NCBI GenBank assembly: GCA_963169855.1
Contig: CAUJCN010000002.1
Coordinates: 775,608-817,811 of the forward strand
DNA from: Patescibacteria group bacterium
Lineage (GTDB): Bacteria; Patescibacteriota; Dojkabacteria; J137
Length of the DNA stretch: 42,204 nt
Direction: 5' to 3'
Shown: positions 36,737 to 42,204 of the stretch, in pieces
Numbering within the stretch: position 1 is the first letter of the stretch
Layout of the letters: the number at the start of each line of letters is the position of its first letter
Notes under the pieces: generated by a model
What the model was told of the DNA's origin: nothing
The model's input: the letters and a program-made list of their open reading frames with translations, nothing else
Database searches by the model: none
Translations under genes and position numbers: made by a program

Positions 36737-37996
36737 ATGAAAAAGAAATATTTGATTGCTCTGGGCATTATTACTATTGTTACATTGTTAGTAATAGTTG
36801 CAGGCATAATCATACTCGCTTCTCGGAAGGAACAAAACATTAACATTCCAGATACTACTTCAAACACAATTCCAGATGAAGAAACTCCAGCAGATGAAGA
36901 AGAACCCGAAGACGAAACTCCACAACAACCACAAACACAAGAAGTGGATCCTTCAATAATTCTTCCTGATTTCGAAATTACAACAGTTGTAGGAGGACTT
37001 GATCATCCTTGGGATGTAGATTTTCTTCCCGATCAAACTATGTTGTTTACACAACGAGGAGGATCTCTAAGCGTGTTTAGAAATGGCTCAACAATACATA
37101 CTTTCGATTTTGAAGATGCATATTCACGAGGGGAAGGAGGAGTTTTAGGATTAGCAGTTGACCCGGAATATTCTAGAAATAATTACGTTTACGTCTGTTT
37201 AAATTCTTCTAGGGGAGCAAATCCAGAAATCAGGGTTGTCAGATTAAAATTGAATTCGGCATTGAACAATATAGACGAGCGAACAGACATAGTAACGGGC
37301 ATGCCATCTGCTGATGGAGGAAGACATTCAGGATGTCAAGTTGAATTTGGAAACGATGGTTATTTATGGGTAGGAACTGGAGATAGGGCTGTGGGTTCAG
37401 AACCACAAGATCCAGTGAGTTTAGGTGGCAAGATTTTAAGGGTGAATCGAGACGGTCGCGCGATCGAAGGAAATTTAGGCAGCCCTTATGATTCAAGAAT
37501 TTTCTCTTACGGTCACAGAAATGTTCAGGGACTACTATTTTTCCCTACGAATTTAGGATTTAGTTTCGAAGGTTTTAGTATAGAACAAGGTCCAGACATG
37601 AACGACGAAATTAATATTCTTCGACCAGGAAACTTTGGATGGAATCCAATCCCAGGATACAACGAATCCGTTCCTATGACAGATAAATCGCTCTACCCTA
37701 ACGCTTTTGACGCAATGTTTGAGAGCGGCAGTAGAACTTTCGCATTATCAGGAGGAACCGTTTTAGTTGGAAATGTTTGGGGAAATCTGCAGGGAACAAT
37801 TGTGGCAGGGGCTTTGAAAGATGAGAAATTAACTTTTGTAAAAGTTAATCGTGACGGAAGTTATTTAAGTACAATCAATGCATTCGAAGGTCAATTCGGC
37901 AGGATAAGAACTGCCCAGATTGGACCGGATCAAGCTTTATACTTACTTACAGATAATGGGGGTAATGACTCAATTATACGAATGATGCCAAAATAA
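36737..37996 (+). CDS. Membrane-anchored PQQ-dependent sugar dehydrogenase (glucose/sorbosone dehydrogenase family)
   Basis: N-terminal TM and acidic linker; LDHPWDVDFLPD, GEGGVLGLAVDP, HSG...FGNDGYLWVGTGD, GKILR, YGHRNVQG, GRIR. Confidence 0.88.
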   Translation: MKKKYLIALGIITIVTLLVIVAGIIILASRKEQNINIPDTTSNTIPDEETPADEEEPEDETPQQPQTQEVDPSIILPDFEITTVVGGLDHPWDVDFLPDQTMLFTQRGGSLSVFRNGSTIHTFDFEDAYSRGEGGVLGLAVDPEYSRNNYVYVCLNSSRGANPEIRVVRLKLNSALNNIDERTDIVTGMPSADGGRHSGCQVEFGNDGYLWVGTGDRAVGSEPQDPVSLGGKILRVNRDGRAIEGNLGSPYDSRIFSYGHRNVQGLLFFPTNLGFSFEGFSIEQGPDMNDEINILRPGNFGWNPIPGYNESVPMTDKSLYPNAFDAMFESGSRTFALSGGTVLVGNVWGNLQGTIVAGALKDEKLTFVKVNRDGSYLSTINAFEGQFGRIRTAQIGPDQALYLLTDNGGNDSIIRMMPK

Positions 37997-40170
37997 TGAA
38001 GACAAAAGTACTCTTGTTTATCAATGCTGTGTTGTTCTCTGTCGCTGTATTGACTTTGCGAGTTCAAGCAATTCCGGACTACGAGTTAAGAATTCTGACT
38101 GTTGAAATCAATCCAGTTGAAAATGGGCAGGATCTTGTTAGTACTTATTTTGGAGGAAACGCGGAAGCGATAAAAGACGAGGCCTTTGGTACAGCAATAG
38201 ATGCTTTTTATGATTTCTCAGCAGGAAAAATTCATTACGAAATTGTTGACGAACTTGTAATCGATGAGTTCCCCGAAGTGAATGACGGTACACCAGCCTT
38301 CACCTTTGAAACTTATGACCGTTGCGTTGGACCGATGACTGCAGATGACTACACATTCTGCGATTCCAGGAAATATGCTTTTGACTATATAAAATTTTTC
38401 AATGATTACGAAATTTGTCAGGCAGCAAATAGTGCTGATGTAGATGAGATTTGGATTATTGGTGCACCTTACGTAGGAATTTACGAAAGTTTTATTATCG
38501 GACCTGAAAGTTCATTCTTTATTAACGGTCCTGACTTTATTAATACAAATTGTCATAAGCTATATCCTGCTTTAGGTCCAACTTGGGATAGACCTGAGAA
38601 TTTGCTCCATAACTACAGTCATAGAATTGAATCCACTCTGGCATATATTTTTAGCAACGTTAACGTTACCCAAAGAAATCAATATTTCTCTAGATTTGTT
38701 GGATTCGATGGTCAACCTAGAAGATGTGGTAATGGTCACTTTCCTGTGAACGCTAGAGGTGAATACGATGTTTCTAACCCAGCAAATGGAAGATTTTATT
38801 GTGTAGACTGGAGAAACTTTCCAAATCATACCAATACTAGTGTATTGATCGGTTGCTCTGCATGGGGATGTACAGATGCAGGTTGGCAGGAATTCTGGTT
38901 TAGTTATGTGCCGAGAGAGGATGGTACCGCAAATCTTTTAAATAGATCCGGTCAAACAATTGAAATTTCCAGAAATTGGTGGGAATACATTCTTTCTCCT
39001 GTAACAGCTAAGGAATTTGTAAGGAATTCATATGAACCAGGATCCGAACCCCCAGAGTGTACAGTTTTAGAATGGTCAGATTGGTCTGTCTGCACTGGAG
39101 AACAACAAACACGTACTGCCCTAAGAACTACACCTCTTATCTGTTCTGATTATGGCGGTTTAGAAGAAACTAGAAGCTGTCCTGGTTGTTTCAACTATAC
39201 ATACAGCGACTGGGGAGAATGCGTTGATGGAGTTCAATCTCGTACTTTCGAAGAAGCTCCGGCGTACTGCCCGGGAGAAACACTAGAAGACTTGACACAG
39301 TCTTGCGTAGTAGAACCACCAGTTTGTACAGTAACAGAATGGTCGGATTGGTCTACTTGCATTGGTGGAGAACAGTTCCGAACTGCAGTAGAAACCGATC
39401 CAGCATCATGTATACCAGATGAAGATACAGAAACACGATCTTGTACAGAAGAACCACTATGCACCGTTTCAGTTTGGTCGGATTGGAGCGAATGCGAAAA
39501 CGACGAACAATTCAGAGTAGCTTTAGAAACAGATCCAACCTTATGTACTCCAGACGAAGACACAGAAACAAGATCTTGTGTATCAGAACCACCAGAATGT
39601 AACGTAACAGAATGGTCAGAATGGTCTGATTGTCTAGATGGGAATCAGTTTAGAACTCCAATAGAAACAAATCCTGCAATGTGTACTCCAGATGTAACTT
39701 CTGAAGCACAATCCTGTACTTGTACAATCTACGAATACTCAGCTTGGGGAGCTTGTTTAAATGGAACACAAACCCGAACCTATATAGAAGACCAAGGAAG
39801 TTGTCCAGGAAATACTTTGGAAGAACTATCAAGAAGTTGTACAGTAACTCCACCGGTCTCTACTCCAGTTTCGACACCAACTACAACAAATCCTAATAAC
39901 AACACAACAACTAATTCTGCAACTTCAGGAGCAAATACAGCAAACAATAATCAAACTGTAGTTCCAGTGAGTTCGCCGATTGTAGTTAAACCACCAATAA
40001 GTAACGGAAACAACAACTCACCGACTGGTCAAACACCAAGCACACCTGGAGAGCAACCACAAGAAGAGCAAGGTTCTAGCAATACAGCAGTAACTGTAGC
40101 AATAGTCGGAGCAGTTGTAACTTCGATGGGGGCAGGAACATATTTCTTCTTCTTTAGAAAACCTTTCTAA
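37996..40170 (+). CDS. Surface protein: signal peptide, globular domain, six TSP1-like repeats, P/T/N stalk, C-terminal TM
   Basis: MKTKVLLFINAVLFSVAVLTLRVQA signal; C-x4-(W/Y)SxW-x2-C...R..C...C repeats; TM AVTVAIVGAVVTSMGAGTYFFFF followed by RKPF. Confidence 0.9.
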   Translation: MKTKVLLFINAVLFSVAVLTLRVQAIPDYELRILTVEINPVENGQDLVSTYFGGNAEAIKDEAFGTAIDAFYDFSAGKIHYEIVDELVIDEFPEVNDGTPAFTFETYDRCVGPMTADDYTFCDSRKYAFDYIKFFNDYEICQAANSADVDEIWIIGAPYVGIYESFIIGPESSFFINGPDFINTNCHKLYPALGPTWDRPENLLHNYSHRIESTLAYIFSNVNVTQRNQYFSRFVGFDGQPRRCGNGHFPVNARGEYDVSNPANGRFYCVDWRNFPNHTNTSVLIGCSAWGCTDAGWQEFWFSYVPREDGTANLLNRSGQTIEISRNWWEYILSPVTAKEFVRNSYEPGSEPPECTVLEWSDWSVCTGEQQTRTALRTTPLICSDYGGLEETRSCPGCFNYTYSDWGECVDGVQSRTFEEAPAYCPGETLEDLTQSCVVEPPVCTVTEWSDWSTCIGGEQFRTAVETDPASCIPDEDTETRSCTEEPLCTVSVWSDWSECENDEQFRVALETDPTLCTPDEDTETRSCVSEPPECNVTEWSEWSDCLDGNQFRTPIETNPAMCTPDVTSEAQSCTCTIYEYSAWGACLNGTQTRTYIEDQGSCPGNTLEELSRSCTVTPPVSTPVSTPTTTNPNNNTTTNSATSGANTANNNQTVVPVSSPIVVKPPISNGNNNSPTGQTPSTPGEQPQEEQGSSNTAVTVAIVGAVVTSMGAGTYFFFFRKPF
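39058..39840 (+). repeat. Six thrombospondin type-1-like repeats
   Basis: CTVLEWSDWSVC, CFNYTYSDWGEC, CTVTEWSDWSTC, CTVSVWSDWSEC, CNVTEWSEWSDC, CTIYEYSAWGAC; four Cys per unit. Confidence 0.8.
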
Positions 40171-41603: not shown

Positions 41604-41637
41604 AACGACATTCTACACTAAAGAGGGAAATTCGTTC

Positions 41638-41706
41638 TATTGACTTACAAATTGAAGTTTTGCTAGTTCTACGAAGCTTTAGCGTAGTAGAACGGAGAGT
41701 AAGGGA
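41638..41706. repeat. 69-bp direct repeat, copy 1 (tRNA 3' end plus flank)
   Basis: 68/69 identical to 42009-42077. Confidence 0.97.
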
Positions 41707-41732
41707 CCAACTACGCCAAGGCTCCGTTGGTC
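41666..41732. repeat. Inverted pair of REP-like 28-nt hairpins flanking the duplicated tRNA end
   Basis: GTTCTAC-gaagctttagcgta-GTAGAAC (41666-41693) and GACCAAC-tacgccaaggctcc-GTTGGTC (41705-41732). The cores are reverse complements at 11/14 positions, while the stems differ. Confidence 0.8.
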
Positions 41733-41971
41733 AAGATTCTTTTTCTCATAAATGCAATTCCAGAACCTGTTTTAAAGTAAGCTTCCAATTCTTTTGCATG
41801 ATTGTATTTCTGCACGGTTATAAATGAACAAAGATATATAGGACAATAAGAAGCTGTATAAGTAGATCTACCTTCTGAATGTTCTCTAAGTCTGCGTTGA
41901 AGATTTCGAGTCATTCCTACATAGCTCCACGAGGCTTTCTTTCTGCTTTTCAAAAAATACACATAATACAC
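41711..41971 (-). CDS. Stand-alone GIY-YIG nuclease (86 aa, GTG start)
   Basis: YYVYFL...YVGMT...RRLREH...LEAYFK; both tyrosine motifs, Arg, His and Glu are present. Confidence 0.93.
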   Translation of the reverse strand: MYYVYFLKSRKKASWSYVGMTRNLQRRLREHSEGRSTYTASYCPIYLCSFITVQKYNHAKELEAYFKTGSGIAFMRKRILTNGALA

Positions 41972-42008
41972 CCTGAATGATATCTTAGAATTTCTGAGTA
42001 AATCTATG

Positions 42009-42077
42009 TATTGATTTACAAATTGAAGTTTTGCTAGTTCTACGAAGCTTTAGCGTAGTAGAACGGAGAGTAAGGGA
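42009..42077. repeat. 69-bp direct repeat, copy 2
   Basis: Overlaps the last 14 nt of the tRNA; contains a hairpin at 42037-42064. Confidence 0.97.
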
Positions 42078-42148
42078 TTCGAACCCCTGGTCCCTTGCGA
42101 GACACTCGTTTTCAAGACGAGCACGTTAGACCACTCCGTCAACTCTCC
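42064..42148 (-). tRNA. tRNA-Ser (anticodon TGA), CCA not encoded
   Basis: GGAGAGT acceptor stem, D arm GGAGTGGTCTAAC, anticodon arm CTCGT-CTTGAAA-ACGAG, long variable arm, GGTTCGAATCC, discriminator G. Confidence 0.97.
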
Positions 42149-42161
42149 ATTAGCGACTGTA

Positions 42162-42190
42162 ATTATACTATACACTTTCGAGTTTGAGAA
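42162..42190 (-). promoter_or_regulatory. sigma70 promoter of tRNA-Ser
   Basis: TTCTCA-N17-TATAAT ending 13 nt upstream of the mature 5' end. Confidence 0.65.
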
Positions 42191-42204
42191 CGTAGTTTAA
42201 AATG

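Follow-up and report, generated by a model that had tools for sequence, protein, structure and literature searches.

A GIY-YIG nuclease gene between inverted hairpins at the 3' end of tRNA-Ser genes in Patescibacteria and other phyla

Single-domain GIY-YIG proteins linked to a dispersed hairpin repeat are known from the Ssn family, whose members comprise about 94 amino acids (aa) (Chenal et al., Nat Commun 2025, PMC11893778). On both sides of the gene lie copies of the hairpin repeat NTS/SRM, hundreds of which are also scattered over the genome; binding by the proteins is restricted to single-stranded DNA (ssDNA) and to one strand of the repeat, and they cut upstream of it (PMC11893778). SsnA of Neisseria meningitidis does not act on RNA, and the authors remarked on the repeat-gene-repeat layout, similar to that of insertion sequences (IS), and on its likeness to repetitive extragenic palindromes and their associated tyrosine transposases (REP/RAYT) (PMC11893778). 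In this study, we analyze a stretch of 42,204 nucleotides, the window, from a Patescibacteria group bacterium (GCA_963169855.1, contig CAUJCN010000002.1, positions 775,608 to 817,811), in which an 86-aa GIY-YIG nuclease gene lies between inverted hairpins directly at the 3' end of a tRNA-Ser(tga) gene. The source genome, G000, consists of two contigs, C1 and C2, with a total of 1.06 Mb and 35% G+C. An initial annotation of the window had proposed that the hairpins are recognition signals of the GIY-YIG protein, in analogy to REP/RAYT systems and with a different nuclease family. Since Ssn is a published precedent, the idea of a GIY-YIG nuclease with hairpin signals is no longer new; for the particular locus, the proposal is partly supported, by association. 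Our literature search on GIY-YIG proteins in combination with tRNA-Ser, Patescibacteria or REP/RAYT revealed no account of such a cassette.

The locus shares several traits with Ssn. Like the Ssn proteins of about 90-100 aa, the 86-aa protein is a single GIY-YIG domain for which no DNA-binding domain is predicted, and its gene is flanked by hairpins on the 5' and the 3' side (the Ssn repeat measures 20-50 nt). The hairpin is also found throughout the genome, hairpin and gene occur together in the genomes compared, and a flank conserved on one side gives the repeat a direction. Other traits differ. Our consensus is an extended hairpin with G.A mismatches, C-GNA-GC-YTTR-GC-GNA-G, and not one of 77 copies fits the SRM pattern HGTCWYN(0-2)YYVSBRHN(0-5)WNVSBRGN(0-2)RNCYNB, which has four unrelated matches in G000 against 0-2 in shuffles, i.e., chance level. 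The hosts are Patescibacteria, Bacteroidota and Ignavibacteriota, while Ssn is found mainly in Pseudomonadati. The cassette is fixed at the 3' ends of tRNA-Ser genes, with 14 nt duplicated, whereas PMC11893778 contains no mention of tRNA. Solo hairpins often lie in genes, compared to only 2% of the NTS copies in Neisseria (PMC11893778). The best solved relatives of the 86-aa protein are UPF0213 and Slx1.

The locus is composed of the following features, where "GNA form" denotes the strand of the hairpin that carries the two GNA triplets.

42064..42148, minus strand: intact tRNA-Ser(tga) gene (ARAGORN; Rfam RF00005, 57.4 bits)
42064-42077, minus strand: last 14 nt of tRNA-Ser(tga) (T60-G73), proximal copy of the duplicated segment
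42037..42064, plus strand: hairpin 2, the proximal hairpin, 28 nt, GNA-form core antisense to the tRNA and the nuclease gene
41972..42036, minus strand: spacer of 65 nt from the proximal hairpin to the GTG start, its first 37 nt within the 78-nt direct repeat
41711..41971, minus strand: GIY-YIG nuclease gene, 86 aa, single domain, GTG start (Pfam PF01541, E = 5e-9)
41705..41732, minus strand: hairpin 3, the distal hairpin, 28 nt, GNA-form core on the sense strand of the gene
41693..41706, minus strand: 14-nt copy of the tRNA 3' end, TCCCTTACTCTCCG on the tRNA strand, directly after the distal hairpin and sharing its last two bases
41666..41693, plus strand: hairpin 1, 28 nt, duplicate of the proximal hairpin, within the 78-nt direct repeat
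41629..41706 (distal) and 42000-42077 (proximal): 78-nt direct repeat (repeat search), 94% identity, last 62 nt identical

The three 28-nt hairpins with 7-bp stems and a 14-nt core are all where the initial annotation had placed them. Hairpin 1 reads GTTCTAC-GAAGCTTTAGCGTA-GTAGAAC with the core on the plus strand, hairpin 2 is identical to it, and hairpin 3 reads GACCAAC-GGAGCCTTGGCGTA-GTTGGTC with the core on the minus strand. The core GRAGCYTTRGCGTA occurs three times in the window, while shuffled sequences give an expectation of 0.01. As described there, hairpin 3, with its different stem and opposite orientation, overlaps the 3' end of the nuclease gene; it covers the last seven codons and the stop and encodes LTNGALA-stop. 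The other type indeed starts at the discriminator base of the tRNA: the outermost base pair of hairpin 2 includes this position, base 42064 being the complement of G73. Likewise, the 14-nt tRNA fragment at 41693-41706 is sandwiched between the inverted hairpins 1 and 3. The count of three separate hairpins has to be corrected, however. The 78-nt direct repeat is composed of 14 nt of the tRNA 3' end, a hairpin and 37 nt, and because hairpins 1 and 2 both lie inside it, they are one hairpin duplicated. Thus, the number of independent hairpins in the window is two, placed in inverted orientation on either side of the gene, and the third is a duplicate.

The GIY-YIG open reading frame (ORF) is the only one in the 303 bp between the 78-nt repeats, and no integrase gene lies within the element. 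An unrelated 334-aa gene starts 62 nt beyond hairpin 1. We infer that hairpin 1 and its 37-nt tail are the leftover of an older, stacked copy, or of a hairpin that already resided there. A reading of hairpins 1 and 2 as the remnant end of a convergent GIY-YIG gene (FYEALA-stop) was rejected, as other copies in G000 also have short open stretches before the core.

The whole G000 assembly was scanned for copies with a paired stem and at most two core mismatches, yielding approximately 15 copies whose stems differ yet remain complementary. Together with copies from relatives and other phyla, the pooled set comprises 77 copies, of which 74 distinct ones were aligned. The consensus is a variable stem of 5-6 bp around C-GNA-GC-Y-TT-R-GC-GNA-G, and the 14-nt "loop" is itself mostly paired (G.A, N-N, A.G, G-C, C-G, Y-R and a TT tip). 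Stem positions 1-5 are paired in 90-94% of the copies, with four to six pair types each. At the two free core positions (Y/R, positions 6/9), T-A occurs in 45 copies, C-G in 27 and other combinations in 5, such that 72/77 are T-A or C-G. Overall, 88% of the cells in the 74 copies are paired, compared to 68% in shuffles, and the covariation score is 0.55 against 0.18 in shuffled alignments and at most 0.14 in controls with slid partners. The hairpin is thus a selected, strongly covarying structure, in good agreement with the earlier proposal of selection on its fold.

The hairpin is also asymmetric between strands. In all paired-stem copies recovered with at most two mismatches, both GNA triplets retain their G and A, and the C and G that close them are constant as well; for the 77-copy set, the search pattern itself prescribed these positions. 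The middle N is mostly A or T and pairs in 61% only. Conservation of GNA is confined to one strand, the complement being TNC, and a CYTG flank is conserved only 5' of the GNA strand, with no mirror on the 3' side. Folded with DNA parameters, the GNA strand of hairpins 1 and 2 reaches -6.0 kcal/mol versus -4.0 kcal/mol for the complement; the values for hairpin 3 are -6.0 and -5.4 kcal/mol. No Rfam family matches the hairpin (E <= 10). As the cassette hairpins are inverted, the 3' end of either strand bears the GNA form with its two G.A mismatches (C-GNA-G ... C-GNA-G). A bias toward one replication strand was considered as well: 10/12 solo copies in G000 have the GNA form on the leading-strand template. 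This signal was weak, could not be confirmed in the complete genome G062, and was dropped.

A search for relatives of the protein returned 43 loci, nearly all of which directly adjoin a tRNA or transfer-messenger RNA (tmRNA) gene in the same orientation. The closest relatives, which are 49-56% identical and partly encoded in metagenome-assembled genomes (MAGs), are located at the following genes.

Saccharibacteria genome of another genus: tRNA-Ser(gct)
Genome of another Patescibacteria family: tRNA-Ser(gga)
Two Bacteroidota MAGs: tRNA-Ser(gga) and tRNA-Ser(cga)
Melioribacteraceae MAG: tRNA-Ser(gct)

Their common order is the tRNA-Ser gene, a hairpin with antisense core starting from the discriminator, the GIY-YIG gene, and a hairpin with sense core over its stop codon. 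Seven full cassettes with the inverted hairpin pair were found in three phyla (Patescibacteria, Bacteroidota and Ignavibacteriota); hairpins on both sides of the gene are present in the window and at loci L002, L015 (two cassettes), L016, L087, and L132. At L014, the stem of the 5' hairpin is kept while its loop is degenerate, and a pseudogenised copy in genome G005 is bracketed by hairpins, too. A 14-nt copy of the tRNA 3' end terminates 6/7 cassettes. At all six loci, it is identical to the local tRNA (14/14), although the six tRNA sequences differ, and it starts at T60, right after the CGAA of the T-loop. This pattern is consistent with a duplication at insertion and inconsistent with a sequence that the element brings along. 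Only L016 deviates: behind its sense hairpin, a 23-nt repeat of the spacer takes the place of the 14-nt tRNA copy.

In 28 relatives, including a genome of the same genus, unrelated sequence and no copy of this hairpin was found after tRNA-Ser(tga), or after tRNA-Ser(cga) where this was the best match; one of them (G017) has a distant GIY-YIG gene downstream of that tRNA-Ser. Similarly, tRNA-Ser(gct) in two sister species of G019 is followed by neither hairpin nor nuclease gene, and the alignment of G019 and G005 stops at the tRNA 3' end. Such empty sites are to be read as absence of hairpin and gene only, as the flanking gene is inverted in G001 and the downstream regions of G019, G005, and G022 are unalignable.

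The ends of tRNA-Ser genes carry further insertions of related make-up. In another genome of the genus (L057, G002:C6), a different hairpin with an 11-bp stem starts at the discriminator of tRNA-Ser(tga), and a gene-less insert of 194 bp is surrounded by direct repeats of 46 nt, 17 nt of which are from the tRNA 3' end and 29 nt are additional. Therefore, the end of tRNA-Ser(tga) is a hot spot for other small insertions, too. A second, mirror-image type of cassette is located in G000 itself, outside the window (C2:113423-113850). Here, a GIY-YIG gene with 35% identity adjoins tRNA-Ser(gga) on its upstream side, and ahead of the gene there are 13 nt copied from the 5' end of the tRNA (TGGAGGAGTCGCA) and a related hairpin with the core ...GCTTTGCGTAG.... 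Finally, C1 and C2 share an overlap of exactly 141 nt at either junction, and both contig breaks coincide with 3' ends of tRNA genes: one directly follows G73 of tRNA-Ser(tga) (window 42064-42204 = end of C2), the other is 4 nt into tRNA-Lys(ctt). This suggests that the breaks are branches of the assembly graph, possibly population variants, right at the start of the cassette.

A 5-kb copper-resistance island outside the window (G000:C2:619731-624865) shows a repeat of this kind, too. It follows a tRNA-Ser(cga) gene with a hairpin that starts at its discriminator, encodes a P-type ATPase, a CsoR-like repressor and chaperones, and ends in a second 78-nt module with 88% identity (14 nt of the tRNA 3' end, hairpin, and 36 nt). 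The repeat likewise begins at T60, and the interior contains neither a nuclease nor an integrase gene.

The hairpin motif occurs far beyond these loci. In a phylum-wide sample, the core was found in 163/401 Patescibacteria genomes with 0-41 copies each, while a control with the reversed pattern was almost always zero. Most copies are solo: 12/15 in G000 and 20/21 in G062 lie away from the nuclease gene. Among 41 relatives, the hairpin is present in 5/5 genomes with a homologue of at least 43% identity and in 3/36 others (Fisher p = 7e-5). In turn, homologues at E <= 1e-15 were found in 11/12 hairpin-rich genomes (one to nine each) and in 0/12 hairpin-free ones (Fisher p = 1e-5), and the contrast is also seen within the families f28 and f34. 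This co-occurrence is non-trivial because most hairpins are solo. The tie between hairpins and GIY-YIG gene that the initial annotation had drawn thus stands for the seven bracketed cassettes and at the genome level; it does not extend to the individual copy, as most copies adjoin neither a tRNA nor a GIY-YIG gene. Three genomes (G022, G025, and G039) carry a few hairpins and no close homologue.

In a sample of 32 copies from 30 other genomes, about half are located within long ORFs, and every frame and either orientation is represented. Hosts of in-frame units are the genes of release factor 1, a Mur ligase, an asparagine synthase, and the B subunit of a V-type ATPase (L111, L123, L098, and L116, in other Patescibacteria genomes), where the units encode peptides such as APLRQGFAGQ. 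Compared to its G000 orthologue, release factor 1 has an 11-residue insert exactly at the hairpin; the insert in asparagine synthase is longer. By adding about 11 residues to conserved proteins in frame, the units resemble Rickettsia palindromic elements (RPE) and other miniature inverted-repeat transposable elements (MITEs) with in-frame insertions in genes; unlike RPE, they measure approximately 33 nt instead of 100-150 nt and have a linked candidate enzyme. G062 contains near-identical subfamilies with extended units of about 55 nt. Viral contigs from IMG/VR (L209-L286) hold 44 well-paired copies, compared to approximately 6 expected by chance from core matches. Together with their patchy distribution over genomes, this suggests that the solo copies behave like miniature mobile DNA of the REP/MITE kind. 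G062 also contains a tandem array (C1:309400-309540) with a 49-nt unit that includes the hairpin (gcttacctgcttacctgtcgcagaccctt-CGAAGCTTTAGCGAAG-tagg).

Likeness to REP/RAYT (also REPIN-RAYT, TnpA_REP) is seen in the short dispersed palindromes, in the lone small enzyme gene between inverted copies of the repeat, and in the recognition that is presumed to act on folded ssDNA. By contrast, the sole gene between our hairpins is GIY-YIG and not a Y1 (HUH) transposase of the IS200/IS605 type, and the GTAG or CGTC head is absent, the conserved flank being CYTG, 5' of the GNA strand. Moreover, copies lie within genes and the cassette crosses phyla and targets tRNA genes, while RAYTs are mostly vertically inherited. 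IS200/IS605 elements themselves have subterminal hairpins on the same strand, an HUH enzyme and no target duplication, as opposed to hairpins on opposite strands, a GIY-YIG enzyme and a duplication.

As for the enzyme, PF01541 spans residues 1-68 of the 86-aa protein, no NCBIfam model matches it, and the family-invariant residues Y3, Y5, Y17, G19, R27, and E63 are all present. An AlphaFold2 model (10-sequence alignment, pLDDT 88.8) shows one GIY-YIG fold. By sequence profile and fold, the closest solved structures are two structure-specific nucleases, Slx1 and HIGLE, and the UPF0213 protein BH0048; the best sequence matches in the Protein Data Bank (PDB) are UPF0213 BH0048 (E = 3e-6) and then Slx1, with UvrC and I-TevI far lower among the structure matches (I-TevI 18th by fold). 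The model thus describes an Slx1/UPF0213-like catalytic domain only, which would leave no room for a DNA-binding domain. Free-standing GIY-YIG homing endonucleases such as the phage T4 Seg proteins (SegB lies in a tRNA cluster) and I-TevI offer a further parallel, a selfish GIY-YIG gene next to tRNA genes. Seg proteins and I-TevI have a DNA-binding domain and comprise 200-250 aa. The 86-aa protein differs in being a catalytic domain only, with no C-terminal DNA-binding region and a predicted fold nearer to Slx1 than to I-TevI, and its cassette has terminal hairpins and a target duplication. The exact protein is not on record elsewhere, and plasmid sequences contain no homologue at E <= 1e-3.

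The last four residues, encoded by the hairpin, are disordered in the model. In G000, the GIY-YIG ORF is the only one to run into a hairpin; the other copies have 6-38 open codons before the core, and those with intact core 6-15. Homologues without the hairpin have other C-terminal ends. Since the core of solo copies is in no frame and the model shows a disordered tail, the ALA-stop ending is imposed on the ORF by the hairpin core and is not a feature of the protein.

Taking the evidence from locus, recurrence, and association together, the hairpins would be cis-acting signals of a selfish cassette of approximately 370 bp, the sole gene of which encodes the 86-aa GIY-YIG nuclease; we give this explanation somewhat better than even chances. 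In analogy to the Ssn proteins, the nuclease would bind the folded GNA-strand hairpin, in single-stranded or extruded DNA, and nick nearby. With one cut in the T-loop of the tRNA-Ser gene and another at its 3' end, the cassette would be inserted at this 3' end with duplication of the target, and the same activity may spread the solo hairpins. The 78-nt repeat of the window would stem from successive insertions that were stacked, the older copy having decayed.

A number of observations weigh against this explanation. Phylogeny partly confounds the co-occurrence of hairpins and homologues at the genome level. GIY-YIG genes are distant from most solo hairpins, so that another enzyme could move these; within the stretches fetched, neither a GIY-YIG gene nor a homologue of the nuclease was found near the 44 copies on viral contigs. 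A cut upstream of the hairpin, as in Ssn, would fall inside the cassette and not at its outer ends. Furthermore, the duplicated segment mostly comprises 14 nt, but 78 nt in the window, and L016 has the 23-nt spacer repeat; as its length varies, a simple target duplication of fixed stagger fails for some loci. A 78-nt repeat of the same make-up flanks the copper island, a gene-unrelated insert, and Logan contigs of ERR10655377-84 end within the repeat and reveal the occupied allele only.

Extended to a general scheme, the selfish cassette would define a minimal class of transposable elements: an Slx1/UPF0213-like enzyme of 86 aa reads the G.A-mismatched hairpin on one DNA strand, cuts tRNA-Ser behind the CGAA of the T-loop as well as at the 3' end, inserts with a 14-nt duplication that keeps the tRNA intact, and seeds solo hairpins of about 33 nt as MITEs, including in-frame copies in housekeeping genes, in several phyla and in phages. 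In this full form, the proposal is tentative and rather doubtful.

Alternatively, the locus may be a domesticated host system of the Ssn type, which we consider unlikely. The nuclease would then read the dispersed hairpins in ssDNA (transforming DNA or intermediates of replication and repair) and restrict or shape recombination, while the tRNA position and the duplications would be relics of an ancient insertion. Such a function is published for the closest system, SsnA/NTS of Neisseria (PMC11893778). The ratio in G000, one copy of the nuclease subfamily versus about 12 solo hairpins, would fit as well, and so would the clustering of hairpins at some genes or islands, e.g., at both ends of the copper island. 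However, one cassette with the same core hairpin and proteins of the identity given above is found across phyla, exact 14-nt duplications occur at different tRNA-Ser genes, the G005 copy is pseudogenised while other genomes have several copies, and units are inserted in frame in housekeeping genes. These points indicate ongoing selfish spread; the two readings are compatible with one another.

It is less probable still that the hairpin is an independent miniature repeat, moved by another enzyme or by replication slippage, and that the GIY-YIG cassette picked up copies or landed beside them. The predominance of solo copies, the viral copies and the three hairpin-bearing genomes that have no close homologue would be expected under this assumption. 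Yet an inverted pair kept at fixed positions (discriminator and stop codon) across three phyla is hard to explain by chance capture, presence and absence of the hairpin vary strongly with the nuclease clade, also within f28 and f34, and no other candidate enzyme recurs at the loci.

We give little credence to the view that the insertions are tRNA-targeting islets mobilized in trans by a tyrosine integrase, with the repeats as attL and attR and the crossover in the T-loop. The repeats do start in the T-loop and span the tRNA 3' end, as in elements with integrases of the T-loop type, which Williams is said to have described in 2002; repeats of this kind also flank the copper island, and G000 encodes two tyrosine recombinases (PF00589; C1:157 kb and C2:709 kb). 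Neither of these genes is near either tRNA-Ser locus, however, and unlike in tyrosine-integrase elements, no integrase gene lies between the repeats; none was apparent as an ORF in the short flanks read around the cassettes of other phyla, either. The identity of the 14-nt copies to the local gene at six differing tRNAs fits a duplication on site, not an att core borne by the element.

Least probable of all is a role at the RNA level, in which the hairpins would terminate, process or stabilize the tRNA and the mRNA of the nuclease and owe their conservation to RNA structure: many G000 copies do lie just downstream of genes or tRNAs, and G.A pairs as well as tips of the types C(UUG)G and U(UU)A would suit RNA, too, but the cassette hairpins are on opposite strands such that one transcript holds one GNA and one TNC form, the terminator reading was rejected in view of mixed orientation relative to neighbouring genes, copies inside ORFs in both orientations (about half of those sampled) and the lack of a T-run (U-tract in RNA), Rfam has no match, and SsnA of N. 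meningitidis leaves RNA untouched (PMC11893778).

Apart from the cassette, the window encodes a secreted or anchored protein of 724 aa (37996-40170, plus strand) with about six C-x-V-x-EWS-x-WS-x-C repeats, a motif that recalls thrombospondin type-1 repeats and is unusual for a Saccharibacteria-like genome.

The main interest of the proposed selfish cassette is in its targeting of tRNA-Ser, its spread across phyla, and the solo hairpins in genes. If the explanation is true, the Ssn principle of a bare GIY-YIG domain that reads a folded DNA hairpin would extend to a new hairpin design and reach the ultra-small bacteria of the candidate phyla radiation (CPR). Mobile units of gene plus hairpin, which were only speculated on in the Ssn paper, would be given a defined target and a target duplication, and a new pair of enzyme and site would be added to the sequence- and structure-specific ssDNA nucleases. 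It would also account for a repeat family in approximately 40% of the sampled Patescibacteria genomes and for short insertions in their housekeeping proteins.

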